A DNA stretch of 64,000 nucleotides from an uncultured Chloroflexia bacterium (GTDB lineage: Bacteria; Chloroflexota; Limnocylindria; Limnocylindrales; CSP1-4), in assembly GCA_963801745.1 (NCBI GenBank), contig CAWDFY010000004.1:640312-704311 (forward strand), written 5' to 3'. The notes below the pieces were generated by a model. It was not told the DNA's origin and did no database searches. It worked only from the letters and a program-made list of their open reading frames with translations. How positions within the stretch are numbered: position 1 is the first letter of the stretch; each line of letters starts with the position of its first letter. Shown here in pieces: positions 5,968-63,850 of this stretch. The position numbers were made by a program, and so were the translations under genes.

Positions 5968-5970
5968 GGA

Positions 5971-7747: not shown

Positions 7748-7828
7748 GGCACCTGCTCGCACGAGGGTGCGCCGATGGCGCAGTCACGTCAAACGAGCCG
7801 GCGGCCACGCCCGGTGTAGCATCGCGCG

Positions 7829-10516: not shown

Positions 10517-12045
10517 CGACGCTCGGCGAGCTGCATCGCGCACTGTTCCCGACCGCCCGCCCGATCGGCTCGGCCGAGCTGGGGGAGGAACGTGCCGCTC
10601 GCGAGGTCGGATGGGTCCGTGTCCTCAAGCCACGCGTCCCGGCATTCGAGGCGCTCGAGACCGGCGATCTCGCCATCATCCCGGGCCCGGCGCTGGCGAT
10701 GGTCGCCCCGGGTCCGGCGCAGGTTCACGACCTGACGGTCGCGCTCGCGCGGGCCCGCGTGCCGGCCGTGCTGCTGGTCGAGGGCGATGCCGGCGGCGAC
10801 GCGCTCGAGGCCGTCGGCGACGCGGCCCACACCGCCGGACTGACCGCGCTCCACCTCGGTCGGACCGATCCGGCCGCCCTCGAGCGCAGCGTGATCGGGT
10901 TCCTCGTGAACCGGCGCGCCGAGCTTGACCGCCGCGCTGCGGACCTCGAGGCGCAGCTGGCCCGCTTCGCGCTCCTGGGTCGCGGGCTCGACGTCCAGGC
11001 CGCGACCATCGGCGCGTTCCTCGGGCGGGCCGTCGTCATCGAGGGTCGGCGCGGCGACCCGATCGCCGTCCATGCGCCGGCCGACCTGCCGGCCGCCGCC
11101 GCGGCCGTGGCCGGCTATCTGGCGCGTCCGACCGGCGCGGGCGCCCTGCGGATCGATATCCCGGCACCGGCCGGCGAGACCGGTGCCGGGGGCCGGCTGA
11201 TCCTGCTCGGGGACGAGCCGCCGAACGAGCTCGAGCGGATCGCCGCGGAACGTGTAGCGGCACTGCTCGCGCTCGAGCTGGCCCGCGACGAGGCGGTGCG
11301 CCAGGCCCGGGAGGAGACGCGCCGTGGGGACCCGCTCCCCGCCGACGGCCCACCGTGGGTCGTGATCCTCGCGGCCCAGGGCGCCTCCGACGGTCCGGAC
11401 GACATCGCCGCCCGCGAGGAGACCCGGGCCGAGCTGCGATTGCTCATGTCGACGCGGCGCCTCCTCCTCAGGGGCAGCTCCGAGAGTCTCGAGCTGCGGC
11501 TGGTCGCCGCGGCGCCCGCCGACGACCCGGACGGTCTCGCGACGGCCGGCCGGCTCGCCACCTTCCTCGACCGGACGGTCGCGGTGAGCCGCCCGTTCAA
11601 CGAGCCGGGTGCCCGGCCCGCGGCCGAGGCGGCGGCACGCGCGACGCTCGAGGCGGCCGACCTGCTGCCCGACCCGCCGCGCGTCGTGCGGGCGTCGCGC
11701 CTGCCCGCCTACCTGCTACTGGGGAACGTGCGCAACCTGCCCGACGGTGTCCGGCAGGCACGCGAGCTGCTGGCGCCGATCCTGGTCGGCCGTGCCGATG
11801 CGCAGCGCGAGCGGCTCGACACGCTCGCCGCGGTCCTCTCGTCGCCGAGCCTCGGCGAGGCGGCGGTGCGGCTCGGGGTGCACCGCAACACGATCGCCTA
11901 CCGCGTCCAACGGCTCGAGGAACGGGCCGATTGGGACCTCGCGGACCCCGAGCTCCGCGTGGCGCTGCTGCTGGCGGTGAGAGTCATGCAAAATGCACAA
12001 GAACCCAGGGACGCACCGGTACTGACCCGCAACCCGGTCGCCTGA
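10513..12045 (+). CDS. PucR-family transcriptional regulator
   Basis: GTG start overlaps the resB stop (GTGA). C-terminal PucR HTH (LGEAAVRLGVHRNTIAYRVQRLEE). The upstream part of the 874-aa ORF 9421-12045 is antisense-frame noise over resB. Confidence 0.75.
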   Translation: MTTLGELHRALFPTARPIGSAELGEERAAREVGWVRVLKPRVPAFEALETGDLAIIPGPALAMVAPGPAQVHDLTVALARARVPAVLLVEGDAGGDALEAVGDAAHTAGLTALHLGRTDPAALERSVIGFLVNRRAELDRRAADLEAQLARFALLGRGLDVQAATIGAFLGRAVVIEGRRGDPIAVHAPADLPAAAAAVAGYLARPTGAGALRIDIPAPAGETGAGGRLILLGDEPPNELERIAAERVAALLALELARDEAVRQAREETRRGDPLPADGPPWVVILAAQGASDGPDDIAAREETRAELRLLMSTRRLLLRGSSESLELRLVAAAPADDPDGLATAGRLATFLDRTVAVSRPFNEPGARPAAEAAARATLEAADLLPDPPRVVRASRLPAYLLLGNVRNLPDGVRQARELLAPILVGRADAQRERLDTLAAVLSSPSLGEAAVRLGVHRNTIAYRVQRLEERADWDLADPELRVALLLAVRVMQNAQEPRDAPVLTRNPVA

Positions 12046-12121
12046 TATCGTGTCCTCCCGAGGTGTCGTGCCGCCGACTTTGGTGCGGCATGCACAAACG
12101 GACGGAGGACCACGTATCGCG

Positions 12122-13579
12122 ATGACCACGCTCGAACGGATCCCCAGCGGCGTCGCCGCCCCGACCACGACCGTCGCCGATGTCCTGTCCCTGGCCCGCG
12201 AGGCGGGCGTCCTCATCGTCGACCTTCGGTTCGTCGACCTGCCCGGCCAGTCGCAGCACTTCAGCATCCCGGTGAAGGACCTCAGCGAGGACCTGTTCAT
12301 CGACGGGATCGGCTTCGATGGCTCGAGCATCCGCGGCTTCCAGCAGATCCACGAGTCGGACATGCTCCTCATGCCCGACCCGACCACGGCCTACGTTGAT
12401 CCGACCCTCGAGATCACGACGCTGATCCTGAGCTGCGACGTCGTCGAGCCGGGCAGCCGCGAGCCGTACAGCCGCGACCCGCGCTACGTCGCCCGCAAGG
12501 CCGAGCGGTATCTCTCCGAGAGCGGCATCGCGACGACCTCGTTCTGGGGTCCAGAGGTCGAGTTCTACATCTTCGACTCGCTCCGCTTCGACACCGCTGG
12601 CCACCGGTCGATGTACGAGATCGACTCCGACGAGGGCATCTGGAACTCGGCCCGCAACGGGACGCCCAACCTTGCCCACCGCCCGCGACCGAAGGAGGGC
12701 TACTTCCCGGTCCCACCGATGGACACGCTCCAGGACCTGCGCAGCCGGATGGTCCTGGCGATGCAGGCGTCGGGCATCGACGTCGAGGTCCAGCACCACG
12801 AGGTCGGCGGCCCCGGCCAGTCCGAGATCGACATCCACTACGGGACCCTCGTCGAGACCGCCGACAAGGTGCTTCGCTACAAGTACATCGTCAAGCAGGT
12901 CGCTCACGCCGCCGGCAAGGTCGCCACGTTCATGCCCAAGCCGCTCTACGGCGACAACGGCTCGGGGATGCACACCCACCAGAGCCTGTGGAAGGACGGC
13001 ACCAACCTCTTCTACGACGAGAAGGGCTACGCGCTGCTGTCGGACACCGCGCGCTGGTACATCGGCGGGTTGCTCAAGCACGCCAAGGCGGTGCTCGCCT
13101 TCGCCGCGCCGACGACCAACTCGTATCGCCGGCTGGTCCCTGGCTACGAGGCCCCGATCAACCTCGTCTACTCGCAGCGCAACCGCTCGGCCTGCATCCG
13201 CATCCCGACGTACTTCACGACGCCCGGTGCCCGACGGCTCGAGTTCCGCTCGCCCGACCCGACCTGCAACCCGTACCTGTCGTTCAGCGCGCAGCTGCTC
13301 GCCGGTCTCGATGGCGTCATCAACAAGATCGAGCCGCCGACGCCGGTCGACGCCGACATCTACGAGCTGAGCGCCGAGGAGAAGGCCGGCATCGACGGCA
13401 CCCCGGGCTCGCTCGAGGAGGCGCTCGACGCGCTCGAGGCCGACCAGGAGTTCCTGTATCGCGGCGACGTCTTCACCAAGGACGTGGTCGACGCCTGGCT
13501 CGACTTCAAGCGGGCCGGCGCCAAGGAGGTCCAGCTCCGGCCGCATCCGTACGAGTTCTATCTCTACAGCGAGATGTAG
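12122..13579 (+). CDS. glnA: Glutamine synthetase type I
   Basis: Intact. Motifs FDGSSIRGF, HHEVGGPGQSEID, KPLYGDNGSGMHTHQSLW and NSYRRLVPGYEAP. GGAGGA RBS upstream of ATG 12122. Confidence 0.9.
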   Translation: MTTLERIPSGVAAPTTTVADVLSLAREAGVLIVDLRFVDLPGQSQHFSIPVKDLSEDLFIDGIGFDGSSIRGFQQIHESDMLLMPDPTTAYVDPTLEITTLILSCDVVEPGSREPYSRDPRYVARKAERYLSESGIATTSFWGPEVEFYIFDSLRFDTAGHRSMYEIDSDEGIWNSARNGTPNLAHRPRPKEGYFPVPPMDTLQDLRSRMVLAMQASGIDVEVQHHEVGGPGQSEIDIHYGTLVETADKVLRYKYIVKQVAHAAGKVATFMPKPLYGDNGSGMHTHQSLWKDGTNLFYDEKGYALLSDTARWYIGGLLKHAKAVLAFAAPTTNSYRRLVPGYEAPINLVYSQRNRSACIRIPTYFTTPGARRLEFRSPDPTCNPYLSFSAQLLAGLDGVINKIEPPTPVDADIYELSAEEKAGIDGTPGSLEEALDALEADQEFLYRGDVFTKDVVDAWLDFKRAGAKEVQLRPHPYEFYLYSEM

Positions 13580-13602
13580 CGAGCACCCATCCGCGAGACC
13601 CG

Positions 13603-13624
13603 CCCGGCTGCGGCAGCAGCCGGG
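13603..13624 (+). terminator. Stem-loop downstream of glnA
   Basis: CCCGGCTGC-GGCA-GCAGCCGGG, a 9-bp GC stem located 24 nt after the glnA stop. No clear T-tract. Confidence 0.4.
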
Positions 13625-13661
13625 CGTATCCTTCTGCCCGATACCGACGAGGAGGAACCCG

Positions 13662-15028
13662 TTGACCGTCGCGACGAGTCCTGACGCCAGCGCCAAGATC
13701 GAGGCCGCCAAGGAGAGCGGCATCCGCTTCGTCCAGCTCCAGTTCACCGACATCATCGGCCACGTCAAGGCCGTCACGATCCCGATCCACCAGCTCGACG
13801 GCTCGGTCAAGCACGGGACGTGGTTCGACGGCTCGTCGATCGAGGGGTTCACCCGGATCGCCGAGTCCGACCAGTACCTGATGCCGGACATGGATACCTT
13901 CGCCGAGATCCCGTGGCAGCCGGGGTCCGGGCCGCGCGGCACGGCACGGGTCATCTGCGACGTGTACACGCCCAACGGCGAGGCCGTTCGTCGGCGATCC
14001 CGCGCTGGGTGCTGCGGCGCCAGGTCGAGCGGGCGAAGAAGCTGGGCTACATCGTGCAACACCGGGCCCGAGCTCGAGTTCTTCCTGTTCCGCCGAGGCG
14101 AGGACGGCGCGATCGAGCCGCTGCCCCACGACCAGGCCGGCTACTTCGACTTCTCGACCGACCTGGCCCAGGAGATCCGCCAGGACATGGTCGACGCGCT
14201 CGAGGCGTTCGGCATCAGGGTCGAGGCGGCCCACCACGAGGTGGCGGTCGGCCAGCACGAGATCGACTTCGAGTACTCCGATGCGCTGCGCACCGCCGAC
14301 AACGCCATCACCTTCAAGTTCGCGCTCAAGGCGATCGCCCAGCAGCACGGCCTGTACGCGACGTTCATGCCGAAGCCGATCCACGGCATCAACGGCTCGG
14401 GGATGCACACCCACCAGTCGCTGTACTCGATCGCCGAGGGACGCAACGCGTTCGCCGACGCCGGGAACCCGTACGGGCTGTCCGATGTGGCTCGGTCGTA
14501 CATGGCCGGCATCCTCGCTCACGCCCGCGGCATGATCGCCGTCCTGGCGCCGTTGGTGAACTCGTACAAGCGGCTCGTGCCCGGGTACGAGGCGCCGACC
14601 TACCTGACCTGGGGTCGCACGAACCGGTCGGCGCTGATCCGCGTGCCGATGGTCTCACCCGGCAAGTCGATCGAAGGGACCCGCGGCCGAGGTTCGCTGC
14701 CCCGACCCGTCGTCGAATACCTACCTGGCGTTCGCGGCGATGATCGCGGCCGGGCTCGATGGCGTCGAGCAGGGGCTGTCGCTTGCCGAGCCGGTCGAGG
14801 AGATCGCTGTTCGAGATGGACGCCAGCAGGATCGCCGAGAAGGGCATCCGGGAGCTGCCCGGCACGCTGGGCGAGGCGCTCGACGAGCTCGAGCGCGACG
14901 AGGTCATCCGCGACGCGCTCGGCGACCACATCTTCGAGCACTATGTGGATGCCAAGCGGGCCGAGTGGGACGAGTACCGGACCCAGGTATCCGACTGGGA
15001 GGTCGAGCGCTACCTCGACGAGTTCTAG
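13662..15028 (+). pseudogene. Second glutamine synthetase (GlnA2-like), at least five +1 frameshifts
   Basis: GAGGAGGA RBS and TTG start. Motifs FTDIIGHVK, FDGSSIEGF, HHEVAVGQHEIDF, KPIHGINGSGMHTHQSL and NSYKRLVPGYEAP. Frame path 0>1>2>0 between 13980 and 14060 (GEA|FVGDP|RWVLRRQVERAKKLGYI|NTGPELEFF), with further shifts at 14690-14800. Confidence 0.85.
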
Positions 15029-15043
15029 AGGGGAGCGGCAAAC

Positions 15044-15298
15044 GTGGAACCCATCCTCATCGGGAGCGGGCTCTTCATCCTCGCGGCGGTCGTGTGGGTC
15101 GTCTGCGCGATCTACGCGTACCGCACGGCGCCCGGTTTCGGCCGCGGGGCTGTGACGTGGGGCATCCTCGGGATCATCTTCGGCCCGATCGCCCTGATGA
15201 TCCTGTACGTGCTCCCCAAACGCGAGCCGAAACCCGGCCACGGCAAGCGTCGATCCGACCCGCGAACGGGGTTGTACGAGAAGCCGCACAAGGACTGA
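15044..15298 (+). CDS. Small two-TM membrane protein
   Basis: 84-aa ORF with a GTG start, two hydrophobic helices and a basic tail. Confidence 0.45.
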
Positions 15299-22201: not shown

Positions 22202-23227
22202 ATGACCGCCCACCGACTCCCAACGCTCCTCGGCGTGCTCGCGCTCGCCGGCCTGCTCGTCGCGACCTCGGCGTGCGCGACGTCCGGCGGCCTCGGCCAG
22301 GTGCCGACCGTGCCGCCGACCAGTGCGCCCTCGGTCGACCCGGGGCCACCCGATGCGACCCCCGCATCGCCACCGTCCGGCTCGCCGAGCGCCTCGCCGT
22401 CGGCATCGCCGAGCGGGCCATCGGCCGCACCGGCGAGCCCATCGAGTGCTCCGCCGAGCGGGTCCCCGTCGCCGTCGACGACGGACACCATGGTCCTGCG
22501 CGCGTACTACGTGCTCGAGGGCGCGCCCGGTGTCGAGGGCATCGTCCCGACCCTTCGCGTCGTGCCGCAGACGACGGGGGTCGCCCGGGCCGCGCTGGGG
22601 GCGCTCCTCGACCCGGATCCGATCCGCGACGACTACAGCCAGATCTCGACGGCCATCCCGTCGGGGACGCGCCTGCTCGGCATCTCGATCAAGGGCGGGG
22701 TCGCGACGGTCGACCTGTCCGGCGAGTTCGCGTCCGGCGGCGGTAGCGCGTCGCAGCACTACCGGCTGGCGCAGGTCGTGTACACCGTGACCCAGTTCCC
22801 GACCGTTCGCGCGGTCCTGTTCCAGGTCGACGGCCGGACCGTCACCACGTTCGGCTCCGAGGGCATCCAGCTCGACGGCCCGCAGGCCCGGTCGGACTTC
22901 CGCGAGCAGCTGCCGACGATCTTCGTCGACCGGCCGGCGTTCGGTGCCGCGGCGGGCAACCCGGCGCGGGTGACCGGCAGCGCCGACGTGTTCGAGGCGA
23001 CGTTCCGGATCGCGATCCTCGACGGGGCGCGGAAGGTGCTGACCGACCAGCGCGCGATGGCGAACTGCGGCGCCGGCTGCGAGCCGCGCGGCACGTTCGA
23101 CGTGCGGGTGCGCTACGACGTCCCGCGGGCGCAGTGGGGCACGCTGCGCGTGTACTACGGGTCGGCCAAGGACGGCAGCCCGCAGGACATCCGCGACTAC
23201 CCGGTCTGGCTGACGCCCGCCCCCTGA
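22202..23227 (+). CDS. Secreted lipoprotein with GerMN-like and Gmad2-like domains (LpqB-position)
   Basis: Lipobox LVATSAC, a Pro/Ser linker, a GerMN-like segment (LRAYYV...VATVDLSGEF) and a C-terminal Ig-like segment (VFEATFRIAILD). Confidence 0.7.
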   Translation: MTAHRLPTLLGVLALAGLLVATSACATSGGLGQVPTVPPTSAPSVDPGPPDATPASPPSGSPSASPSASPSGPSAAPASPSSAPPSGSPSPSTTDTMVLRAYYVLEGAPGVEGIVPTLRVVPQTTGVARAALGALLDPDPIRDDYSQISTAIPSGTRLLGISIKGGVATVDLSGEFASGGGSASQHYRLAQVVYTVTQFPTVRAVLFQVDGRTVTTFGSEGIQLDGPQARSDFREQLPTIFVDRPAFGAAAGNPARVTGSADVFEATFRIAILDGARKVLTDQRAMANCGAGCEPRGTFDVRVRYDVPRAQWGTLRVYYGSAKDGSPQDIRDYPVWLTPAP

Positions 23228-26234: not shown

Positions 26235-27039
26235 CGGGCCGCCGAGGCGTTGACGGCGCGGACGTACCCGGTGGGGGGAACCGGGAGTCGGTGTGGATCG
26301 GACCAGCGCGCCGTCATGCCCACAAGCGTGCGTGGCGACGGGTCCGCGGTTTCTACTTCGGTCGATTGGGCCATGCCTACGGAGCAGGTCTCGCGGCGCG
26401 GATCATGCCGAGTGATCACGCGGGCTGAGTGAGTGCCAGTGCAGATCAGGTAGGGCGACCAGCGCGACGGCAGTCCACCCGAGCGCGGCGACCGCGACGA
26501 ACATCGGCGGAGGGCCGAAGAAGAGGACGATGCGACGTCGAGACGACGGCCGACGCGACGGCGAGCGCTGAACGCGTCGCGCGCCGAACAGAGCAGCGGC
26601 GCGGCCGTACGACGAACTCGACGAGCGACGCGATCCAGAACGCGCTCGCCACGATGGTCGCGCTGTCGGAGCGAGCGGCAGGAGCCACGACCGCGCCGCT
26701 GTCCACGCGCCAGTCGCGGTCTACGGTCGGGCGGCCACCATGCAGGCGCCGCGATGACGCCCGCGTGTCCGACGCAGTGTACAGCGCGCGGCGAACCAGA
26801 CGACTCGAACGACCTGATCGACACGGGCGACTCGAAGCACGACGGACCAGACGACATCGGGAACAGCCGTCGCTCGAGCACGGTCTCAAGTCGCGTTCAG
26901 AAGTGCAAGGCCGCGATCGGCAACACGGGCAGCCGTACCGGGCGTCACGCGGGCACACCAACGCTGCACCACGCGCGGCACGGAGATCCACGCGCGCGGT
27001 CACGCGGGACCGCAGCCCAATTGCGATCGCCGATCCATC

Positions 27040-27602
27040 GGTGCTACGGGCCGCCAGGAGCCTGCCAGCCGCGGGTCGACATCGGTCGCGATCGCCGTCG
27101 GCGTGGCGCCTCCTCCAGCAGGACCGCTCGACGAATTGAGCCTCGAGCAGCGGCCGATGTCCCGGCGTTCGTCCTCTCGAGCTACGAGCGGCTGCCCCAG
27201 CTGCAGCTGCTCACCTGACATGGCGTGACAGCGACTCGACCAAGGGCCGCATCTACGTCGACCGATCGGCGCGGTCCGATTCGACCGGTTCGCGACCGCG
27301 CAGCGACTGAGCCTCCAGCTCACGGTCCTGAGCGGGAACACCCAGAGCGGCGTGGCGACCGTCGGTTCCGACAAGGTCTGGATCGAATCGGACGAGCCGA
27401 ATATCGGAGAGACCCGCGCGTGTTCCTTCGAACCATCCTCAGTCCCGCCGACGAGTGGCCACTGGCTGCGAGATGGAGCGCGACTCGAGTGATGTCGGCA
27501 CTGGCACCGCGGCAGCGGGCTGGCGGTACGTCGGTATCGAATACGTCGCGGGGCGCCCCACGCACGATGTCGCGTGTGTCGGCGATCTCTGGATCGACTG
27601 GA
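27040..27602 (+). pseudogene. LolA/LppX-like lipoprotein remnant, frameshifted and 3'-truncated by the AT-rich island
   Basis: Pieces in three frames: PLDELSLEQ..ADVPAFVLSSYERLPQLQLL; GRIYVDRS; WRYVGIEYVAGRPTHDVACVGDLWID. The family assignment is weak. Confidence 0.3.
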
Positions 27603-28090
27603 ACAATGCTTACTGCGGAAACTGAGTATATGCAGATGGTCAGAAGTAGAATCAAATTATAGGAGTGTTTCAGAATGTTAAAAGTTTTGAGAAGTAATAA
27701 TAAATCCGGATTATTAGATCTAGATGATATTGATACGTGAGCACTACCTTTCATTAGGTATCACAGAGAGGAGAAATACAGACAGGAGTAAATAAAACTA
27801 GAGGCGAAGTATGGACGGAAGGAGAGAAAAATATATGACGTTGGATAAAGCAATGGATCCGAGATATACGATGACGATGAGAGAGATGGATAGGACAAGT
27901 TCATTAGGAAATGAGGGATGAAGGCAATGATGGACGATGCACAGTATAGAAAGGAAGAGGTTGTGATTGAGGGCATGATATTGTGATACGATGGAACACC
28001 AGTGATTAGCTGTTTCATGTAGTATGATGTACTTCTATATCTGTAGATGGTGTGTTATAGTTATTATGGATATTATTAACGTGAAGGCGT
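27603..28090. other. AT-rich (~30% GC), purine-skewed, C-depleted island of unknown origin
   Basis: Direct inspection shows sharp compositional boundaries on both sides. The plus strand is mostly A/G. The island contains three SD-led mini-ORFs at 27675-27740, 27835-27921 and 27918-27986. Confidence 0.9.
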
Positions 28091-28185
28091 TTATCTAGAT
28101 CGTTGGCCCTGATCGTCGAGCAACGCTCCGATCGTTCCCCCGACCCACTGTCGTTGAGGCCCTTGCATTCGCTGGATCATGGGCG

Positions 28186-40432: not shown

Positions 40433-41948
40433 TCAGCGAATGGCGCGGTGACCCTTGTAATCGGACTCCTGCGCCGATCGGGCGACGACCCGGAGGCTGC
40501 CGTCGGGGAAGAACCCGGTCCTGGTCTTTGCAAGTGTCAGCACGGCGTCCGCGGCCGCGTCACCCAGCTCGAACAGGGCCTGGGTGCTGAGGTTGTTGAT
40601 CGTGTCGCACGCCTGGTGGTAGCAGGGGTCGTACGGCGCGCCGGCGGTCCCGCCGTAGACGGCCGCCTCCTCCGCGGTCTTGATGCCCTCGGCCCCGCTG
40701 AACAGGCCGCCCGCGGGGATGCCGACGGCGATGAACGGGCCGTAGTCCGAGCGACCGTCGAAGGCGGTCGGTTCGGTCGCGAGACCCTGGCGAGGCGAAG
40801 TAGTCGTTGAAGACCTGCTCGATCTCGGCGGAGCCCGGCGGGCCCGGATCCGGCGTGTCCGAGCCGTCGCCGTCGTAGACGAACCGGACGTAGTTCGGAG
40901 AGCCGAGCATGTCGAAGTTCAGGTTGGCGAAGATCTTGGCGAGCTTGGCGTCGCTGAGGGTGTTCACGTAGTGCTCGGAGCCGAGCAGGTTCGCCTCTTC
41001 AGCTCCCCAGAACGCGAAGCGCACCTTCTGTCGCGGCTTGATCTTGAGCTCCGCCATCTCCTCCGCGATCTCGAGGATGGTCGAGCTGCCGCTGCCGTTG
41101 TCGTTGATGCCGGGGCCCTCGACCACCGAGTCGAGATGCGCGCCGACGACTACCACCTTGTCGGCGTCGCCGCCGGGCGAGTCGGCGATGACGTTCGTCG
41201 TCTTGGCTTCGAGGTCGACCACGGTCGACGTGAAGACCCGGACGACGACCGGGCCGGCCTGGGTCTGGTCGTAGAGCGCCAGCGCGTCAGCGAAGCTGAG
41301 CCCGACGACCGGGATGTCTACCGGGACGCCGAGCGTGCCGATGAACAACTCGGTACGGCCCGGGTTGCCCTTCGTTGAAGATGATGGCTGCGTCGTAGCC
41401 GGCAGCCTGCGCATTCTTCGCCTTGTCCTCGAAGAAGCAGGTGCCGCGCTGGATCAGCGCGACCTGGGCCCGGCCCGGCGCGGCGCGAAATCCGCGGGCT
41501 CGCAGCCTGAGGTCGAGCTCGGCTCAGGCGTCGGCGGGTTCACGATGTCGTTCGTCGGGACGAGCTGTCCGGTGACGTCGCCGCTGCCCGAGAAATCGAA
41601 CGTGCCGGTCTCGTACTCCGTGGGGGTCGGCGATACCTGCGCGAGCTCGGCCGGGGCCAGCGCCTGGAAGAACGGGAACGTGAACTCCTGCACGGTCACC
41701 TTGTAGCCGGCCTTCTTGAGCGTCTTCTTGACGTAGTCGGCCGACGCGTCGTAGCCCGGTGTGCCGGAGGCACGGGTGCCGTCGTTCTGGTTGGCGATCC
41801 GCTGGAACACCCGCTGATGAGCGAGGATCCCGCCGACCGTCACGGCCTTGCGGAGTCGCGTGCTGTCGATGTCGTCTACGGCGGACGCGGGTCCGACGAT
41901 GGTCAGGACGAGCACCGCCGCGACCAATAGGGCGAAGAGCCTGCGCAT
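40433..41948 (-). pseudogene. M28-family aminopeptidase with PA domain, several +1 frameshifts
   Basis: Signal peptide, PA-domain segment (QVALIQRGTCFFEDKAKNAQAAGYDAAIIFNEG) and M28 motifs (VVVGAHLDSV, NDNGSGS, FAFWGAEE) across frames. The tail CYHQACDTINN is in a further frame. Confidence 0.8.
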
Positions 41949-55072: not shown

Positions 55073-55945
55073 ATGACGGGTTCCGTGGATCACGAGGCGC
55101 CGCCGACCCGCCACATCTCGACGCGGTCGGTCGTGGCCGTCCGCGGCTCGTCGCTCGAGGTCCGGGCGGACCGGGTGGTCGGCGAGGCGCCGCTCGAGAT
55201 CCGGGCGGCCGGGCCGGGGCAGGACCCGGTCGCCGTGGCTGTCACGATGCGCACGCCCGGGCACGAGCCGGAGCTGGCGGTCGGATTCCTGCGGACCGAG
55301 GGCCTGATCGACGGGCCCGAGGTGGTCGACACCGAGGGCGGCGACCCGTCGACGCTGAACCAGCCCGACGACACGATCGTGGTGCGGCTCTCGCGGCCGT
55401 TCGACGCGACGGCCGTCGCCGAGCGCCACTTCGTGGCGACCGCGTCGTGCGGGATCTGCGGCAAGGCTTCGATCGACGAGGTCGCGCTGCGCTGCGCGCC
55501 GCTGCCGGACGGTCCGGTCGTGCCGCGCTCGGTGATCATCGCGCTGCCGGACCTGCTGCGGGCCGCCCAGAAGGCGTTCGACGAGACGGGTGGCGTGCAC
55601 GCGGCCGCGTTGTTCTCGCCGGGCGGTGAGCTGATCGAGATCCGCGAGGACGTCGGACGCCACAACGCGCTCGACAAGCTGGTCGGGTCGCAGGTGCTGG
55701 CGGGCGCGCTGCCGCTGCACGACCGGATCCTGATGGTCTCGGGCCGGGTGAGCTTCGAGATCGTCCAGAAGGCGGCGGTCGCGGGCATCCCGATCGTCGC
55801 CGCGGTCTCGGCCCCGTCCGACCTGGCGGTCGAGACGTCCGAACGGCTGGGGGTCACGCTGGTCGGGTTCCTGCGCGGCGACGGGTTCAACGTGTACAGC
55901 CACGACCGACGGGTCGACCTGCGCGACCTGACGGGCTGGGGCTAG
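55073..55945 (+). CDS. fdhD: Formate dehydrogenase accessory sulfurtransferase FdhD
   Basis: SCGICGK active-site loop, GGVHAAA and DVGRHNALDKLVG. Confidence 0.9.
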   Translation: MTGSVDHEAPPTRHISTRSVVAVRGSSLEVRADRVVGEAPLEIRAAGPGQDPVAVAVTMRTPGHEPELAVGFLRTEGLIDGPEVVDTEGGDPSTLNQPDDTIVVRLSRPFDATAVAERHFVATASCGICGKASIDEVALRCAPLPDGPVVPRSVIIALPDLLRAAQKAFDETGGVHAAALFSPGGELIEIREDVGRHNALDKLVGSQVLAGALPLHDRILMVSGRVSFEIVQKAAVAGIPIVAAVSAPSDLAVETSERLGVTLVGFLRGDGFNVYSHDRRVDLRDLTGWG

Positions 55946-55976: not shown

Positions 55977-56115
55977 GTGACCGGCAGTCAGCACCGAGGC
56001 TCCGAAGGAACTGATCTCGGCTCAAACGAGGCCCTTCGTGACTGTCAGTCACCGGTCGGGCGACGTACAAGGCTCGATGCCGCGTCTCGACCCGTCGGTG
56101 CTGACTCCGGGTCAC
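55977..56115. repeat. Palindromic MITE/REP-like element, copy A (139 bp)
   Basis: Ends GTGACCGGCAGTCAGCACCGAGG... and ...TCGGTGCTGACTCCGGGTCAC are inverted repeats. Internal dyad GTGACTGTCAGTCAC. Confidence 0.75.
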
Positions 56116-56149: not shown

Positions 56150-56920
56150 GTGTTGGATACGACGATGGCAATCCGACGGCCATCAGTCGAGCGACTGGTC
56201 CAGCAGCGACTGAGGTCACTCGTCCGCAAGGTCGGTGACGACGTTAGGCGCGTCAGGATCGACACGTCTGCCAGCCAAGCTGCCGTAGCCCGCGAGGCTG
56301 GCATCGATCGATCGCATGTGACCCGGATCGAAGCCGGCATGACCCAGGCCAGCCTGGAGACGCTCGTTGCGATCGCGACGGCCTTGGGTGCCGATGTCAG
56401 CGTCCGCTTGTATCCGGGACGCGGCCTCGGCATCACCGACCGCCACCAGGCACCCATGATCGAGTGCCTGCTAGGCCAACTCGCGCCCGTATGGCGTCCG
56501 CACCTCGAGGTCGCGACGTTCCGGCCGGCGCGGGGGTTCATCGACACGGTCCTCGAACGGCGCGACCATCCACTCCTCGTGATCGGTGAGTTCGAGTCGA
56601 CGCTCCCGAGGCTCGAGCAGCAGATCCGATGGGCGTCCGAGAAGGCGGCCTCGATCGGCTCCTCGGATCTCGTCGGACCCGGTCCCGCGCCGCGGACTTC
56701 GAAGCTGTTGGTCCTGCGTTCGACGGAGTCGACGCGCGGTCTCGCCCGGACGTTCGAGAAGACGCTTCAGGCCGCCTACCCGGCGTCGACTCGCGAAGCC
56801 GTCGAGTCGCTCCGGACCGGCTCCCCGTGGCCCGGCGACGCCATCATCTGGTTCCGGATCCAAGGAGACCGCGTCGAGTTGCTCGACGGGCCGCCGCGGG
56901 GAGTCAAGCTCGGTCGATAG
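56150..56920 (+). CDS. XRE-family HTH protein with uncharacterised (possibly nuclease-fold) C-terminal domain
   Basis: HTH SQAAVAREAGIDRSHVTRIEAG. The C-terminal ~170 aa carry an H...IDTV...LLVIGEFES pattern. Bracketed by repeat copies A and B. An alternative start is ATG 56165. Confidence 0.65.
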   Translation: MLDTTMAIRRPSVERLVQQRLRSLVRKVGDDVRRVRIDTSASQAAVAREAGIDRSHVTRIEAGMTQASLETLVAIATALGADVSVRLYPGRGLGITDRHQAPMIECLLGQLAPVWRPHLEVATFRPARGFIDTVLERRDHPLLVIGEFESTLPRLEQQIRWASEKAASIGSSDLVGPGPAPRTSKLLVLRSTESTRGLARTFEKTLQAAYPASTREAVESLRTGSPWPGDAIIWFRIQGDRVELLDGPPRGVKLGR

Positions 56921-56922: not shown

Positions 56923-57071
56923 GTGACCGGGAGTCAACACCGAGGGTCCGAAGGTGCCGATGGGCGCGTCCAGCACGAAGGTGGGTGACTCACACGCACA
57001 CATCGACGCCGAACCGGCTCGATTCGGCGGTCATGGCGATCTTCGAGAGGCTGGTGCTGACTCTCAGTCAC
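56923..57071. repeat. Palindromic MITE/REP-like element, copy B (149 bp)
   Basis: GTGACCGGGAGTCAACACCGAGGGTCCGAAGG...GGTGCTGACTCTCAGTCAC. Starts 2 nt after the XRE stop. Its right end supplies the stop codon of the PPOX gene. Confidence 0.75.
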
Positions 57072-57504
57072 GGGCAACGGCGCTCCAGCGAGTCGCGCGC
57101 TCGATCGTCATCGCGATCGTCGGCCGGCGCTCGAGGTCGTGATCGCGGTACTGCGGGTACTTCGCCCGGAGCGACGCGATGACCGCGACCGGTACGTCCG
57201 CTGGCTCGACGAGCCTCGCGGATCCGGCCAGTCGCAGCCATGCCAGCTCGGACCAGTCCTCCGACCAGCGGTCGACCAGCAGCGTCACCGCCGGCCGCTC
57301 GTCGATGTCGCGCACGCTCGCGAGCGATCGCACGTCGGCAACGGCCTTCGGCTTCTCGTCGAGCGGCGTCCAGACGACGCCGTCGAGGAGCACGAAGCAG
57401 ACCGGCACCAGCCGCGGGCGACCATCGCCATCGATCGTCGCGAGCGTCGCCGTCCGCGCCGCCGCGAGGAGCTTACGGTCGGCCGGCGTCAGGACCGGGG
57501 GCAC
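57064..57504 (-). CDS. PPOX-class F420-dependent oxidoreductase (TIGR03668-like)
   Basis: ARTATLATIDGDGRPRLVPVCF...VTLLVDRWSEDWSELAWLRLAG...LRAKYPQY. Confidence 0.75.
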   Translation of the reverse strand: MPPVLTPADRKLLAAARTATLATIDGDGRPRLVPVCFVLLDGVVWTPLDEKPKAVADVRSLASVRDIDERPAVTLLVDRWSEDWSELAWLRLAGSARLVEPADVPVAVIASLRAKYPQYRDHDLERRPTIAMTIERATRWSAVARD

Positions 57505-58600
57505 TCGCCGGGCGCTCGTTGACGAACTCGAAGCCGAAGCGGCCCTTGATGCAGAGATGGCCCTCGGTCACCGTCGAGTCGAGCGGCGAGGTCACCTTGA
57601 GGATCCGCTCGTCCTGGACGTGCAGGTCGACCACACATCCGACGCCGCAGTACGGGCAGATCGTCGACGTCACGGTCTGGACGTCTGGATCCCACGTGCC
57701 ATCCGCTCGCATGTCGTACTCGGTCTTCGCCATGAGCGCCCCGGTCGGGCACACGCCGATGCAGTTGCCGCAATACACGCATGCCGACTCGGGCAGCGGG
57801 ACGGCGGCTTCGGTCGAGATCCGCGCGTCAAACCCGCGCCCCGCGACCGCGATCGCGAACGTGTTCTGGGCGTCCTCGCCGCACGCCTCGACGCACTTGT
57901 AGCAGAGGATGCACTTCGAGTAGTCGCGCACGTAGAGGTCGTTGTCGACCTTGGTCGGCTGGGCGACGGTGGCGGCGAACGCGGCCTCGACGCCGGTCGG
58001 CTCGTGATGGTGCCCGGCCTCCCGGGCGTCGCGCACGCCGGCCGTGGCGGGCGGCGCCGGCAGGCCGAACCGCGTCGGGTCGGCGCCATACCGCTCCATG
58101 TAGTCGTGGATCGTCCCGTCCGGCGTCGCGGGCCCGGTCAGCGACACGTCCACCGACGATCCGAGGAACTCGAGCACGACCTTGCGGGACGTGCGGACCC
58201 GCTCGGTGTCGGTCTGCACGTCCATGCCCGGCTCGACCCGCCGGGAGCAGGCGGGTGCGAGCACGCGCGACCCGGCGACCTCGACGACACAGACCCGACA
58301 GACGTTGACCGGGGTCAGGTTCTCCGCGTAGCACAGCGTCGGCGTATCGATGCCGAGCGCGCGACAGGCGTCGAGGATCGTCGAGCCGGTCGGGACCGTG
58401 ACCGCCTGCCCGTCGATCGTGAGCTCGACCGGTGTCGGTGCCTCGACGGGCGGCGGCGTCGGTGGCTTCGATGGCCGCGCCGGTGGCGACAGGACGATCT
58501 CGGTCAGCGGCTGCGCGGCAGGCGCCTGGCCCGCGTGCGGCGAATGCGGATCGGGGGCGGGGTCGCGCGTCATCGACAGGCCGGACGTGTCCTCGGTCAC
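57473..58600 (-). CDS. NAD-type formate dehydrogenase alpha subunit, N-terminal Fe-S module only (2Fe-2S, NuoG-type 4Fe-4S, 2x4Fe-4S ferredoxin, Molybdop_Fe4S4)
   Basis: LTIDGQAVTVPTGSTILDAC...CRVCVVEV; CILCYKCVEACG...CVYCGNCIGVCPTGAL; ICPYCGVGCVVDL...GHLCIKGRFGFEFV. Then the ORF ends. Its GTG overlaps the upstream stop. Confidence 0.8.
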   Translation of the reverse strand: MTEDTSGLSMTRDPAPDPHSPHAGQAPAAQPLTEIVLSPPARPSKPPTPPPVEAPTPVELTIDGQAVTVPTGSTILDACRALGIDTPTLCYAENLTPVNVCRVCVVEVAGSRVLAPACSRRVEPGMDVQTDTERVRTSRKVVLEFLGSSVDVSLTGPATPDGTIHDYMERYGADPTRFGLPAPPATAGVRDAREAGHHHEPTGVEAAFAATVAQPTKVDNDLYVRDYSKCILCYKCVEACGEDAQNTFAIAVAGRGFDARISTEAAVPLPESACVYCGNCIGVCPTGALMAKTEYDMRADGTWDPDVQTVTSTICPYCGVGCVVDLHVQDERILKVTSPLDSTVTEGHLCIKGRFGFEFVNERPASAPGPDAGRP

Positions 58601-60445
58601 AGGGCCACCAGCCCGGGCTGTCGGAGCGCCGACTCGATGGCCGACGATGCGGTCTGGCCGAGCCCGCAGATCGATGCATCGCGCATGGCCTGGCCGATCT
58701 CGCGCAGCAGGACCAGCTCCTCGTCACGCGTGCGGACGCGCGCCCCCGCGGCGAGCCGCGTCAGCAGCTCCTCCTGGCGCACGCTCCCGACTCGACACGG
58801 GACGCACTGCCCGCACGACTCATCGCGGAAGAAGCGGGCGATGCGCCGCAGCGTGTCGACGAGGTCGACGGTCTCGTCGAACACCATGATCACGCCCGAC
58901 CCGAGCGTCGCCCCGGCAGCGCGGGTGGCCTCGAACGTCAGCGGCATCTCGAGCGAATCGGGCCCGACGAAGACGCCGGCTGCGCCACCGAGCAGGATCG
59001 CCCGGATCGGGCGCCCGCCGCTGACCCCGCCGGCGAGCTCGATCAGGTCGCCGAGCGTCGCGCCGAACTCGACCTCGTAGACGCCGGGTCGCGCGACGTG
59101 ACCGGACAGGCAGAACAGCCGGGGCCCGGTCGAGCCCTCGGTGCCGATCCCGGCGTATGCCTCGCCGCCCAGCTCCAGCACGAGCGGCACGTTCACCAGC
59201 GTCTCGACGTTGTTGACCACGGTCGGCATGCCGAACAGCCCGACCTCGACCGGGAACGGCGGCTTGTTGCGCGGCTCGCCGCGCTTGCCCTCGATCGACT
59301 CGAACAGCGCGGTCTCCTCGCCACAGATGTACGCGCCGGCGCCGCGGCGCACCTCGATGTCGAACGCGACGCCGGACCCGAGGATGTCGGCCCCGAGCAG
59401 GCCGGCAGCGCGCGCGGCCGCGATCGCGTCGCGGACGTTCGCCTCCGCCTCCGGGTACTCGCCGCGGATGTACAGGTAGCCACGCGTGGCACCGGTCGCG
59501 AACGCGCCGATCGTCATCGCCTCGACCACCGCGAACGGGTCGCCCTCGAGGAGGACGCGGTCCTTGAACGTGCCGGGCTCCGACTCGTCGGCGTTGCACA
59601 CGAGGTAGTGGGGCTGTGCCGGCTGGGCGGCTACCGCGGCCCACTTGCGGCCGGTCGGGAACGCCGCCCCGCCACGGCCCATCAGCTTCGACGCGGTCAC
59701 CTCGGCGATGACCGCCTCCGGGCCGATCTCGAGCGCCTTCGCGAGGGCGGTGTAGCCGCCGTGCGCGCGGTAGTCGTCGAGCGACGTCGGGTCGACGACC
59801 CCGACCCGACGCAGCAGCCGGAGCGACGCGTCTGCCCGCCTGCGGGATCGAGGGCGGTCGCCGCCGCGTCGACCCGCCGTCGAGCCGGGCGACGATCCCG
59901 GCCGCGTCGACCGGCGCCGCGCTCATCACGCCGGGCGGATCGCCGGCGGTCGTGACCAGCGCGGCCGGCGCCAGGTCGCACAGCCCGAGGCAGGGCGATC
60001 GCTTCCAGCCGACGCGCCCGTCCCGTGCCGCCTCGCCCTCCGGCCCGACCGACCGCCCGAGGTCGTCGCAGATCGCCTCCGCCCCGGCGACGCGACATGC
60101 GATGTCATCGCAGACGTGGGCCACGACCGGCGGCCGCGGGGTGGTCGCGTAGAGCGCGTAGAACGTCGCGACGCCGTACGCCTCGGCCGGCGGCACCGCC
60201 AGCCGTCGCGAGATGTAGTTCAGGGCGGGCTGGCTGATCCAGCCGATGCGGTCCTGGACCGCGTGCAGCGCCGGCAGCAGCAGCGTTCGCTGCGAGCGGA
60301 GCGCATGCCCGCCACGGGCGGCGTGACCGTCGATGCCCGGCCGTCGGGTCCCGCCGACCCACCCGGACTCCGGCTGGCCGAGCACGCTGTCGACCGCCGC
60401 ACGCTCGGCGGGGGACGCGAGCGGCCCGATGACGTGCAGGTCCAT
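58597..60445 (-). pseudogene. NuoE-NuoF-like fusion (FdsG/FdsB; NAD/FMN/Fe-S diaphorase module), one +1 frameshift near 59830-59880
   Basis: NuoE part VCDDIACRVAG...CLGLCDLAP. NuoF part GRGGAAFPTGRKW, NADESEPGTFKDR, ESCGQCVPCR and CGLGQ. Confidence 0.8.
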
Positions 60446-60493
60446 CGGGTCGAGTGTAGCGGCGGGACCGCAGCGGTCGCGGCCCGGCGGTCC

Positions 60494-62409
60494 TCAGGCC
60501 GGGACGGCCTCGCCCAGCTTCTCGATGCGGATCGCGGTCGCCTTGAACTCGGCCGTGCCCGACTTCGGGTCGGTCGCGTCGATCGTCAGCAGGTTCGTCG
60601 CGACGTCGTCCTGGAAGTGCAGCGTCATGAAGGTCAGGCCGGGTCGGAGCGAGGGGTCGATCCGGACCGGCACCTCGACCTGGCCGCGACGCGAGATCGC
60701 GCAGACCACCTCGCCGTCGGCGAGTCCGTACGTCTCGGCGTCCTCCGGCGAGATGTCGAGCGACTCGCCCCGGCGGAGCGGCGACGTGTAGCCCGCGGTC
60801 TGGACGCCGGTGTTGTACGAGTCGAGTCGACGGCCGGTCGTCAGGCGGATCGGATACTCGTCGGTCAGCTTGTCGACGGGCGGGTCGTGATCGACCGGAA
60901 CGAACGGCACGCGATTGCCGGGGACGGGGTCCTCCCACAGTCGACTGTGGAGGAACAGCTCGCCCGGGTGGTCCTCGTCGTAGCACGGCCACTGGATGCC
61001 GCCGAGCTCCTCGAGGCGCTGGTAGGTCATCCCGGCGTGGACCGGCGACAGCGACCGGACCTCGTCCCACACCCGCTCGGCGTCGGGCTCGCCCCAGTCG
61101 TGGCCCATCCGGCGGGCGATGTCGAAGATGATCGCCAGGTCGTCGCGGGCACCCTCGGGTGGCGTCGACCGCCTTGCGGACGCGCTGGACGCGCCGTTCC
61201 GAGTTGGTGACCGTGCCCTCGCCCTCGGCCCAGGCGGCGGTCGCCGGCAGGACGACGTCCGCGAGCTCGGCCGTCCTGGTCAGGAACAGGTCCTGCACGA
61301 CGAGCATGTCGAGCCCCTCGAGCAGACCGATGGCGCGGCGCTGGTCGGCCTCGGACTGGACCGGGTTCTCGCCGATGCAGTACACGGCGGTGAGGTCGCC
61401 CCGCTCCATCGCATCGAACATGCCCGACAGGTGCCAGCCACGCTCTGGCGGGATCGTGACGCCCCAGGCCGCGTCGAACTTCGCGCGGAGCTCGTCGTTC
61501 TCGACGTGCTGGAAGCCGGGCAGTCGATCGGGCAGGGCGCCCATGTCGCCGCCGCCCTGCACGTTGTTCTGGCCACGGAGCGGGTTGACGCCGCTCCCGT
61601 AGCGACCGACGTGGCCGGTCAGCAGCACGAGGTCGATCAGGGACAGGACGTTGTCGACCGCGTTGTGGTGCTCGGTGATGCCGAGCGTCCAGCAGATCAT
61701 CGCCCGCGGCGCGGTCGCCAGCGCGTGCGCCAGCTCGCGGATGGCGTCGGCCGGGACACCGGTCTCGCGCTCGGCGTACTCGAGCGTGTACGACTCGACC
61801 TTGGCCTTGTAGGCATCGAAGTCGGAGGTCGCCCGGCCGATGAACTCGCGGTGCTCCAGGCCCGACGGCGATGATCTCGCGCCCGATGGCGTTGGCCAGC
61901 GCGATGTCGCTGCCCACGTCGAGGCCCAGCCACGTGTCGGCCCATTCCGCGCTCGATGTCCGGCGCGGGTCGACCGCGTACAGCCGCGCGCCCTTGTGCA
62001 CGGCCTTGAGGAGGTGGTGGAAGAAGATCGGATGCGTCTCGCGGGCATTGCTGCCCCAGAGGACGATCAGATCGGTGTCCTCGACCTCACGGTATGAACT
62101 TGTGCCGCCACCGGCACCGAACACGGTCGCCAGACCGGCGACGCTCGGGGCGTGTCAGGTGCGGTTGCAGCTATCGATGTTGTTGCTGCCCAGGACCGCC
62201 CGGCTGAACTTCTGTGCCGCGAAGTTGACCTCGTTGGTCGCCTTGCTGCAGCTGAAGGTGCCGAATGTCGTCGGGCCGTGCGCGGCCCTGGCCGCGGTGA
62301 ACCCGGCGACGACGCGGTCGAGCGCTTCGTCCCACGTCGCGGGTCGAAGCTCGCTGCCCTTCGTGTCGCGGACGAGGGGCTGGGTCAGCCGTACGTAGGG
62401 CCTCGCCAC
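60494..62409 (-). pseudogene. Formate dehydrogenase catalytic (Mo/W-bisPGD) module, selenocysteine-containing; in-frame TGA at 62155-62157 plus two +1 frameshifts
   Basis: GGAGG RBS and GTG at 62409. RLTQPLVRD...NNIDSCNRT-TGA-HAPSVAGL places the TGA at the Sec/Cys active-site position. Continues as LWGSNARETHP, NPLRGQNNVQGG and a C-terminal DMSO-reductase-type barrel (LTTGRRLDSYNTG). Confidence 0.8.
62122..62154 (-). promoter_or_regulatory. Bacterial SECIS element immediately 3' of the UGA
   Basis: mRNA UGA-CACG-CCCCGAGC-GUCGCC-GGUCU-GGCGAC-CGUG: a lower helix CACG/CGUG, an upper 6-bp helix, and a GGUCU apical loop like the fdhF SECIS loop (recalled from memory). Confidence 0.7.
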
Positions 62410-62523
62410 ATCGTGGCCTCCTGCGGATGCCGACCCGGCGAGTGTACCGCCGAGCCACCTTCGCCGACTTCAGCCCCGATCTGCAGTCTGACAACCACGC
62501 CGAGGGCAGGTGGTCGCACGTCG

Positions 62524-62662
62524 GTGACTCCCAGTCAGCATGGAGGCGCCGAGACCTCCTGCCGACGGCGCGTGAGCGGCGGACGGTGACCGGTGGTCAC
62601 GACTGGGGTCTGAGGAACCATCCGACGCGTGTTTCGAGGCCCTGGTGCTGACTGGGAGTCAC
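62524..62662. repeat. Palindromic MITE/REP-like element, copy C (139 bp)
   Basis: GTGACTCCCAGTCAGCA...TGCTGACTGGGAGTCAC (perfect 17-bp terminal inverted repeats). Internal GGTGACCGGTGGTCAC. The right end supplies the selD stop codon. Confidence 0.75.
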
Positions 62663-63713
62663 GCGAGGGCCACGCCCGTGCCGTCGGTCACGGACCGACC
62701 CGCCAGTGGTCGACGCCGGCGTCGTCGAGGGCCGCCGTGACCGCCTCGAGACGCTCGTCCGGGATGGCCGCGAGCAGGCCGCCGCTCGTCTGCGGGTCGT
62801 GGGCGAGCGTGACGATCTCCGGCGGCGACGCCCGTCGCCGACCTCCAGGTCGGCCGCCACGAACCGGCGGTTGTGGGCCGCGCCACCGGTCTCGACGCCG
62901 GCCGCGGGCGAGGTCGAGCGCGCCCGGCAGGGCCGGCAGCGCCGCCGCGTCGAACACCAGCCGGACGCCCGACGCGCGCGCCATCTCCAGGCCGTGGCCG
63001 AGCAGCCCGAAGCCCGTGACGTCGGTCGCCCCGCGGATGTCATTCGCGACGAGGACCTCGGCGGCAGCCCGGTTGAGGCGCCCGCATCGCGTCGATCGCC
63101 GATCGCGAGGTCGGCGGCGCCGGTCCGGCCCTGTCGCGCGCCGCTGACCAGCACACCGGTCCCGAGCCGCTTGGTCAGCAGCAGCGTGTCGCCGGCGCGG
63201 GCGCCGCCCTTGCGCAGCAGCCGGTCGGGGTGGGCCGCGCCGATGACCGCCAGCCCGTACTTCGGCTCCGGGTCGCGGATCGTGTGCCCGCCGGCCAGCG
63301 TGCCGCCGGCCTCGCGGACCTTCGCGGACGCCCCGCCGAACACCTCGGCCAGCACGTCCCGCGGCAGCTCCTCGGGGAATGCCGCGATCGACAGCGCGAA
63401 CAGGACGCGGCCACCCATCGCGAACACGTCGCTCAGCGCGTTCGCGGCCGCGATCTCGCCGAACGTCCGGGCGTCGTCGACCAGCGGCGGGAAGAAGTCG
63501 AGCGTGCCGATGATCGCGAGGTCGTCGCTGATGCGGTAGGCGGCCGCGTCGTCGGGCGGGTCGAGACCGGCGATCAGGTCGGCCGGGGCGGCCTCGGCGC
63601 CGAGGCCCGCGAGCGCATCGGACAGCAGGTCGGCGCCGAGCTTCGCCGCGCAGCCGCCGCAGTCGGTCAGGCTCGGTGAGGCGCAGACCCGGGACGTCGG
63701 CGAGGCTCGTCAT
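62659..63713 (-). pseudogene. selD: Selenide, water dikinase SelD (Cys-type), many +1 frameshifts
   Basis: MTSLADVPGLRLTE / TDCGGCAAKLG...ALSDVFAMGG...GGHTIRDPEPKYG / AIDAMR / LNRAAAEVL..ATDVTGFGLLGH / AHDPQTSGGLL, recovered from alternating frames. Confidence 0.8.
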
Positions 63714-63743: not shown

Positions 63744-63840
63744 CATCGCTCCTGGGAGCGGTCGGGCCCCGGTGGGTCCCCCGGTCTTCAAAACCGGTGA
63801 CGCCGCGCTCGGCGTGGCGTGGTGGGTTCGACTCCCACGC
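63744..63840 (+). tRNA. selC: tRNA-Sec (anticodon TCA), 97 nt, CCA encoded
   Basis: Hand fold: 6-bp D-stem GGGCCC/GGGTCC with a 4-nt loop, anticodon stem CCGGT/ACCGG with loop CTTCAAA, long variable arm, T-arm GTGGG-TTCGACT-CCCAC, and an extended acceptor stem. Confidence 0.9.
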
Positions 63841-63850
63841 GTTCCCGCCA

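Follow-up and report, generated by a model that had tools for sequence, protein, structure and literature searches.

We analysed a 64,000 nucleotide stretch of DNA (the window) from an uncultured Chloroflexia bacterium of the Limnocylindrales (assembly GCA_963801745.1, contig CAWDFY010000004.1, positions 640,312 to 704,311), and describe here a gene cluster encoding a predicted formate dehydrogenase (FDH). The catalytic alpha subunit of this FDH is divided over two proteins, exactly at the boundary between the domain of the proximal [4Fe-4S] cluster (Molybdop_Fe4S4, PF04879; hereafter FS0) and the molybdenum (Mo) domain. The genes lie on the minus strand in the order catalytic Mo module with selenocysteine (Sec), NuoE-NuoF fusion, and Fe-S protein ending after the FS0 domain. 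This split is a conserved, widespread operon type and not a local rearrangement or an artefact, and it has apparently not been described so far. We consider it probable that the product of this region is a cytoplasmic, NAD(P)+-linked FDH, dependent on Sec and on a Mo or tungsten (W) bis-pyranopterin guanine dinucleotide (bisPGD) cofactor, that consists of three polypeptides and uses FS0 in trans.

Organization of the operon

The operon and the signals within it are listed below, with the evidence for each. GC3 is the GC content at third codon positions and SECIS the selenocysteine insertion sequence.

62417 to 62421, minus strand: GGAGG ribosome-binding site, 7 nt 5' of the GTG start of the Mo gene (62409-62407) (sequence)
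60494 to 62409, minus strand: catalytic Mo/W-bisPGD module (alpha), conceptually about 637 aa, without FS0 (translation, GC3 plot, tblastn, Pfam, TIGR01591)
62155 to 62157, minus strand: in-frame TGA, the active-site selenocysteine codon, in the motif SCNRT-U-HAPS (translation)
62126 to 62142, minus strand: SECIS hairpin GUCGCC-GGUCU-GGCGAC, beginning 12 nt 3' of the UGA (comparison, covariation)
58597 to 60445, minus strand: NuoE-NuoF fusion, diaphorase subunit (beta), with NuoE on 60445-59834 and NuoF on 59832-58597 (translation, tblastn, Pfam)
57473 to 58600, minus strand: HoxU/NuoG-N-like Fe-S subunit (gamma) with the FS0 [4Fe-4S] domain, CPYCGVGC...C-IKGRF (translation, Pfam, alignments)

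The N-terminus of the Mo open reading frame (ORF) reads VARPYVRLTQPLVRD, and the position of its start is kept in relatives as M/V-A-K/R-P-Y-V-R-L. After repair of the reading frame (see below) Pfam detected PF00384 (E = 1.8e-65) and PF01568 (E = 8.9e-25) in this module. An active site of the form U/C-H ... R-G-Q defines class I (PMC8808070). Both class I motifs, here U-H ... R-G-Q, are found in alpha, as SCNRT-U-HAPS and as the catalytic arginine motif NPLRGQNNVQG. By its domains and motifs the module is assigned to the alpha type of Mo/W-bisPGD FDHs, but it has no FS0 of its own. The FS0 domain (PF04879) is not on the Mo polypeptide; the separate Fe-S ORF carries it, at residues 309-361.

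The cut is best seen with the NCBIfam model TIGR01591 (Fdh-alpha). Profile positions 1-51 match the C-terminus of the Fe-S protein and positions 53-672 match the Mo module. The two matches score 52.4 and 644.6 bits, each below the curated cut-off of 666.25, whereas their sum (697) is above it. The Mo module aligns to residues 61-690 of Escherichia coli FdhH (469 bits) and to residues 308-932 of Rhodobacter capsulatus FdsA (425 bits). The initial annotation, made from the letters of the window alone, had proposed that alpha is split at a domain boundary into an Fe-S and a Mo protein, and that the genes follow a permuted order compared with fdsGBA. The TIGR01591 matches bear out the former, and the latter is seen both in the window and in 64 of the 80 related loci that matched best. 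That FS0 would have to act in trans, as was also pointed out, follows from the split at this boundary.

The Fe-S ORF is intact and encodes 375 aa. In brief, Pfam places Fer2_4 at residues 56-132, two ferredoxin-type 4Fe-4S motifs at about 224-289, and Molybdop_Fe4S4 at 309-361. Its GTG start overlaps the stop codon of NuoF (GTGA), and its own stop lies 11 codons past GHLCIKGRFGFEFVNERP. The initial annotation was right in letting this ORF run from 58600 to 57473 and end just past Molybdop_Fe4S4, in giving it a 32-nt overlap with a PPOX-type gene (a PNPOx-like gene starting at 57504), and in giving the catalytic ORF its own GGAGG ribosome-binding site (62421-62417) and GTG start. The best PDB match of the Fe-S ORF is residues 18-304 of R. 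capsulatus FdsA (E = 4e-46), and the HoxU model matches it at E = 1.7e-38, a score below the model's own cut-off. Within FS0 all four cysteines and the lysine of C-I-K-G-R are invariant across the aligned gamma homologues.

The domains that the initial annotation had named are present in part. PF04879, PF00384, PF01568 and Fer2_4 were found, but PF10588, the His-ligated [4Fe-4S] cluster domain (HxxxCxxCxxxxxC), had no Pfam match in the Fe-S protein. The FdsA motif HPLDCLTCAANGDC aligns to SSVDVSLTGPATPDG in the Fe-S protein, in a stretch free of cysteine. There is no cysteine between residues 133 and 229, and the same region is cysteine-free in 14 plus 8 aligned homologues. This insert, which replaces the His/Cys3 cluster, carries a motif G-E-R-D...(P/A)-G-H-H-H that recurs across phyla.

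The repaired beta subunit contains 2Fe-2S_thioredx, Complex1_51K, SLBB and NADH_4Fe-4S (Pfam), and its Cys motifs can be recognised in the translations of both parts. Uninterrupted NuoE-NuoF fusions of 615 aa are found at the related loci L002, L003 and L005. Apart from the His-ligated 4Fe-4S cluster, the three polypeptides jointly contain all elements of an FdsABG-like enzyme.

A maturation gene is located near the operon.

55073 to 55945, plus strand: FdhD sulfurtransferase, for FDH maturation (Pfam FdhD-NarQ, E = 2e-64)

The fdhD gene is kept beside the operon in relatives, and in the Actinomycetota loci it lies directly upstream. It also accompanies loci without an adjacent Mo gene.

Distribution and conservation of the split

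A scan of one genome per GTDB species, with the Fe-S protein as query, found relatives in at least 591 species genomes. In two homologue searches with the Fe-S protein, all 8000 scored candidates were significant. The top 120 homologues in each search are 325-392 aa long and carry PF04879 at their end, without PF00384. Aligned gamma members all end 2-17 residues past GRFGFxFVNxRP, and every gamma ORF at the related loci has its stop 0-33 codons beyond the end of its alignment with the L002 Fe-S protein. The alpha N-termini have the form M-x(3-10)-RLTxPLVR in every phylum, and several have an in-frame stop 1-10 codons upstream, so that no FS0 is hidden in front of alpha.

Synteny was compared in the 80 best loci, which were searched by tblastn with the L002 proteins. 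The order Mo, NuoEF, FeS on one strand was found in 64 of these, and most of the others are truncated contigs. By label, about 40 of the 80 loci are from Chloroflexota/Limnocylindria, 17 from Acidobacteriota, nine from Actinomycetota and seven from Planctomycetota, with one each from Rokubacteria, Vulcanimicrobiota and a "proteobacterium"; a few are probably mis-binned contigs. Three loci labelled Saccharimonadales (L007), Binatia (L026) and Verrucomicrobiia (L051) carry operons 74-82% identical to the Limnocylindria version, and binning contamination or recent transfer is the likely explanation for these.

Outside Chloroflexota the operon is tight, with gaps of 10-60 nt. Limnocylindria loci often have inserted genes (cupin, adenylate/guanylate-cyclase domain) between the Mo gene and NuoEF, over up to 4.6 kbp, for example at L002 (4917-6108), L003 (5224-6090) and L012 (2559-7142).

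Across phyla, split members share 62-75% identity. To the nearest fused FdsA-like proteins found, identity is about 36-39% for the Fe-S portion and no more than 46% for the Mo portion. Since split members across phyla are closer to each other than to the fused proteins, the comparison suggests a single origin of the split followed by lateral spread. Both architectures coexist in one Limnocylindrales metagenome-assembled genome (MAG), L036, which encodes the split Sec operon (9517-14552, minus strand) and also a canonical cluster (2122-8444), in which a fused FdsA-like gene precedes individual NuoE and NuoF genes. The genes of the canonical cluster are 27-48% identical to the split genes.

A tblastn search of a plasmid collection gave only fused FdsA-type genes, at about 35% identity, and no cultured carrier. 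Among the matches listed by a cross-phylum profile search, all sources were MAGs or metagenomes and none was an isolate. The family is abundant in soil metagenomes, where it forms thousands of sequence clusters. Its members have generic database names such as "2Fe-2S cluster-binding protein", "YjgC" and "HndD". Because the family is annotated only in such terms, the capacity for formate oxidation is probably under-called in Limnocylindria, Acidobacteriota, Actinomycetota and Planctomycetota.

Selenocysteine

The active-site position is a TGA codon in all 64 split-type Mo modules (loci within L005-L084), and no Cys variant of the split-type module was found among the 80 best loci. An fdhF-type SECIS hairpin with a 6-bp stem is kept in all 64 loci. 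Two of its stem pairs are doubly compensated in seven of 23 sampled sequences, and these two pairs are never broken. The apical loop, GGUC, is similar to the SECIS loop of E. coli fdhF.

Two further genes for Sec decoding lie upstream of the Mo gene.

62694 to 63676, minus strand: selD (selenophosphate synthetase), interrupted in the window by several 1-nt indels (tblastn, two high-scoring segment pairs (HSPs) in different frames)
63754 to 63850, plus strand: tRNA-Sec (selC), anticodon TCA (Rfam RF01852, 71.7 bits; ARAGORN)

At L001 and L003 selA and selB flank the same locus; here they would lie beyond the window end. Judged by these genes and signals, a Sec-decoding set (tRNA-Sec, selD and SECIS, with selA and selB in relatives) accompanies the predicted FDH locus.

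As 64 of 64 examined loci use TGA, a correlation only, we tentatively raise the idea, which we regard as possible but doubtful, that the split and the placing of the Sec gene first are an adaptation to selenocysteine decoding. A cut after FS0 and a move of the Sec core to the first position would place the UGA at about codon 85. Failed Sec insertion would then yield a harmless 84-aa peptide, instead of a dead fragment that is loaded with clusters and binds NuoEF. Premature termination might also exert polarity on the downstream diaphorase genes, which would make their expression selenium-gated. Alternatively, or in addition, FS0 in trans might serve as an assembly checkpoint, by which only a cofactor-loaded core would be wired to the Fe-S chain.

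Frameshifts in the window

The initial annotation treated 62409-60494 and 60445-58597 as one ORF each and overlooked frameshifts in these two of the three genes. In fact the Mo gene spans three frames, 62409-61867, 61865-61164 and 61162-60494, as seen by translation, GC3 frame plot and tblastn. Alignment to a 95% identical contig, L001, identified extra single bases at 61866 and at 61163. NuoE and NuoF are put in different frames by one more base, at 59833, so the intact fusion is found only in relatives. All three are single-base insertions when compared with L001 and L002. A tblastn search with the intact Mo protein of L002 gave three collinear HSPs in the window at 87-96% identity. On either side of each shift the window protein is 87-96% identical to intact L002, and there is no other lesion. 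The selD gene has at least five indels, at 63103, 63080, 62904, 62858 and 62823.

Indels of this kind are not confined to the FDH locus. A hidden Markov model of codon-position GC found about 35 same-strand frame switches in the whole window that have no stop codon at the boundary. They hit the xylose isomerase and xylulokinase genes (7357-4433), an ATP-binding cassette (ABC) permease (2377-3629, at least eight switches), glutamine synthetase (13580-15295, four switches) and, likewise, an aminopeptidase gene. Approximately 30 switches lie outside the FDH genes, at 1619-6720, 13988-14805, 22339-22482, 25444, 40789-41520, 43981, 45237 and 51231, and an ABC ATPase is also hit. The window resembles an unpolished long-read assembly with clustered 1-nt indels. 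The practical point for this window is that its sequence very probably contains many indel errors.

L001 also has indels in these FDH genes, but not those of the window. We compared frame-splits over 84 related loci, in which Flye-style "contig_N" names correspond to ERZ and MFD assemblies. The FDH genes are frame-split in 19 of the 40 "contig_"-named long-read loci and in none of the 44 loci of short-read style (Fisher p = 4e-8). Nanopore data underlie the MFD MAGs (PMC12313526). Because housekeeping genes are hit too, relatives differ in their shifts and short-read loci are clean, we hold it very probable that the three FDH frameshifts are sequencing or assembly errors of the Nanopore type. 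Programmed frameshifting is ruled out by intact relatives that have no shift at those sites.

The proposed enzyme

We suggest that the three polypeptides function as follows. Alpha would be a catalytic core that begins at domain II of FdhF/FdsA and itself lacks any Fe-S cluster. Beta, the NuoE-NuoF fusion, would carry a [2Fe-2S] cluster, flavin mononucleotide (FMN), the NAD(H) site and a [4Fe-4S] cluster. Gamma is predicted to be HoxU/NuoG-N-like, with one [2Fe-2S] cluster, two ferredoxin-type [4Fe-4S] clusters and the C-terminal FS0 [4Fe-4S] cluster. The C-terminal approximately 60 residues of gamma would complete domain I of alpha in trans, as the position of the cut implies. Electrons would be transferred from formate via the Mo(Sec)/pterin site to FS0 of gamma, from there to the other 4Fe-4S and the 2Fe-2S clusters of gamma, and further via the 4Fe-4S cluster of NuoF and FMN to NAD(P)+. 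The GTGA overlap may couple the translation of the beta and gamma genes, and the neighbouring FdhD, selD and tRNA-Sec would mature the enzyme.

It should be noted that several points weigh against this proposal. The complex of alpha and gamma is predicted from sequence. That the frameshifts are errors is the most likely explanation, which we draw from the comparison with relatives. Gamma does not have the His-ligated [4Fe-4S] cluster of FdsA and NuoG, which implies a non-canonical electron path to NuoF. The AlphaFold2 single-chain model of gamma is poor, with a mean pLDDT of 45 and a pTM of 0.39 (14-sequence alignment). Finally, six Chloroflexota loci (L004, L011, L022, L033, L046 and L082) encode NuoEF-FeS with no Mo gene in the 7-9 kbp upstream.

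Alternative explanations

The six loci without a nearby Mo gene, together with the unrelated cupin and nucleotide cyclase genes that separate the Mo gene from NuoEF in Limnocylindria, could be explained if NuoEF and the Fe-S protein formed a diaphorase or redox module by themselves, with a vestigial, N7-like 4Fe-4S cluster at the C-terminus, while the Mo module uses another partner. This would leave the Mo module without a cluster of its own to accept electrons. Moreover, the FS0 cysteines and the electron-relay lysine are invariant, the operon is tight outside Chloroflexota, and FdhD is present even where no Mo gene adjoins. We regard an independent module as quite unlikely. It is likewise improbable that the FDH and Sec-use genes are genuine decaying pseudogenes with real frameshifts in alpha, beta and selD. 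Within 5.5 kbp there are indeed three FDH frameshifts and at least five in selD, and these indels lie outside long homopolymers. However, housekeeping genes throughout the window (glutamine synthetase, xylA, xylB and the ABC permease) have comparable switches, the 87-96% identity flanking each shift comes without further lesion, and related long-read contigs have other shifts in the same genes while short-read contigs have none.

The initial annotation had left open whether the gene order arose by rearrangement. In this case an ancestral nuoEF-fdsA operon would have been cut at the FS0 boundary and reordered here, or misassembled, possibly via the repeats that flank the block. The string GGCGAG(T)GCCC occurs both where the Fe-S ORF ends and where the Mo ORF begins, but it merely represents the codons of conserved P-A/A-R-P residues. 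Of the three repeat copies, that at 55977-56115 is outside the block, and an unrelated helix-turn-helix (HTH) gene has a copy on either side. Sixty-four loci share this cut point and order. They belong to Chloroflexota, Acidobacteriota, Actinomycetota, Planctomycetota, Rokubacteria and Vulcanimicrobiota, among them phyla without these repeats, and stem from short-read as well as long-read assemblies. We therefore give a local rearrangement or misassembly hardly any weight, and synteny across phyla that do not have the repeats rules out the repeat-mediated form.

Comparison with known systems

The enzymes closest in logic are the FdsGBA(D) FDHs of R. capsulatus and Cupriavidus necator (PDB 6TGA/6TG9). 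As in the window, they have NuoE- and NuoF-like partners and an FdhD/FdsC-type maturation factor, and they share the path from Mo via an Fe-S chain and FMN to NAD+. FdsA is, however, one chain of approximately 958 aa, which here is cut after FS0, and the fds order is G-B-A, whereas here the Mo gene is first and the Fe-S gene last. Furthermore, NuoE and NuoF are fused here and the His-ligated 4Fe-4S cluster is absent. Fds enzymes use Cys where the enzyme here would use Sec.

With E. coli FdhF/FdhH (PDB 1FDO/1AA6) and FdhF from the hydrogen-dependent CO2 reductase, the Mo module shows a slightly closer match than with FdsA, and it has the same U-H...R-G-Q active site as these proteins. FdhH holds FS0 in its first 60 residues, whereas the module in the window starts at the equivalent of residue 61. 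The tungsten FDH1 of Methylobacterium extorquens (Fdh1A/Fdh1B; PDB 7VW6/7E5Z) has a beta subunit that is a NuoE-NuoF fusion, and its alpha subunit was detected as a homologue. Unlike here, Fdh1A is a single chain of approximately 990 aa with FS0 and the Fe-S module attached.

The Mo/W-bisPGD fold is also distributed over two polypeptides in FwdB/FwdD of formylmethanofuran dehydrogenase, where the C-terminal cap domain (domain IV) is split off. To our knowledge this is the only precedent for a two-chain bisPGD fold, and it is cut at the other end than here. In all characterised Mo/W-bisPGD enzymes with FS0 that we know of, FS0 is on the catalytic polypeptide and interwoven with domain I.

A separate NuoG-N-like or HoxU-like Fe-S subunit, as here, is also part of Hyl and of the HoxFU diaphorase of NAD-reducing hydrogenases. 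In the bifurcating FDH HylABC-FdhF2 of Gottschalkia (Clostridium) acidurici, the NuoG-N-like Fe-S protein is a separate subunit (PMC5736913). The Hyl/Hox catalytic subunit keeps its own proximal cluster, whereas here the proximal cluster domain is on the Fe-S subunit.

The initial annotation had considered that the arrangement might be common and already described. It is common (64 of 80 loci), but in the literature searched no FDH is described whose FS0 is carried by another subunit than the catalytic one, although absence there is not proof of absence. A large natural family with FS0 on the electron transfer subunit would mean that two chains can together build the interface of FS0 and domain I. 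This is relevant to cofactor insertion, to economical expression of Sec enzymes and to the engineering of modularised CO2-reducing FDHs.

Other features of the window

A PNPOx-like gene and three copies of an intergenic element are located around the operon.

57064 to 57504 (start 57504), minus strand: PNPOx-like gene, 32-nt overlap with the end of the Fe-S ORF (translation, Pfam)
55977 to 56115, 56923 to 57071 and 62524 to 62662, no strand assigned: element of approximately 140 nt with terminal inverted repeats GTGACYSNSAGTCAGCAC (motif scan, alignment)

Only in Limnocylindria does the PNPOx-like gene adjoin the operon, and it probably does not belong to the enzyme. The palindromic repeats first noted at 57071 and 62524 do exist, as copies at 57054-57071 and 62524-62541, but they are actually the ends of the approximately 140-nt element. 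The element has 18-nt inverted repeats at its termini and an internal GGTGAC...GTCAC palindrome. Its terminal motif has six matches in the window against 0.04 expected, and its RNA fold is 3.9 standard deviations more stable than shuffles. The element looks like a miniature inverted-repeat transposable element or a repetitive extragenic palindrome. All three copies lie in the last 8 kbp of the window, two of them on either side of the HTH gene (56150-56920), and L001 too has the one located between selD and the Mo gene. The element is not part of the enzyme. Nor is it needed for the gene order, because the split operon occurs in phyla without these elements.

A region of approximately 1.9 kbp (26250-28100) has no coding signal in the GC3 model and contains spurious ORFs only. 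The 26-28 kbp region had no Rfam match at either threshold. Within 26250-28100 there is a strong skew of A over T, of up to +0.4, and the GC content falls to 40% at 27700-28000, compared with 70% for the window.

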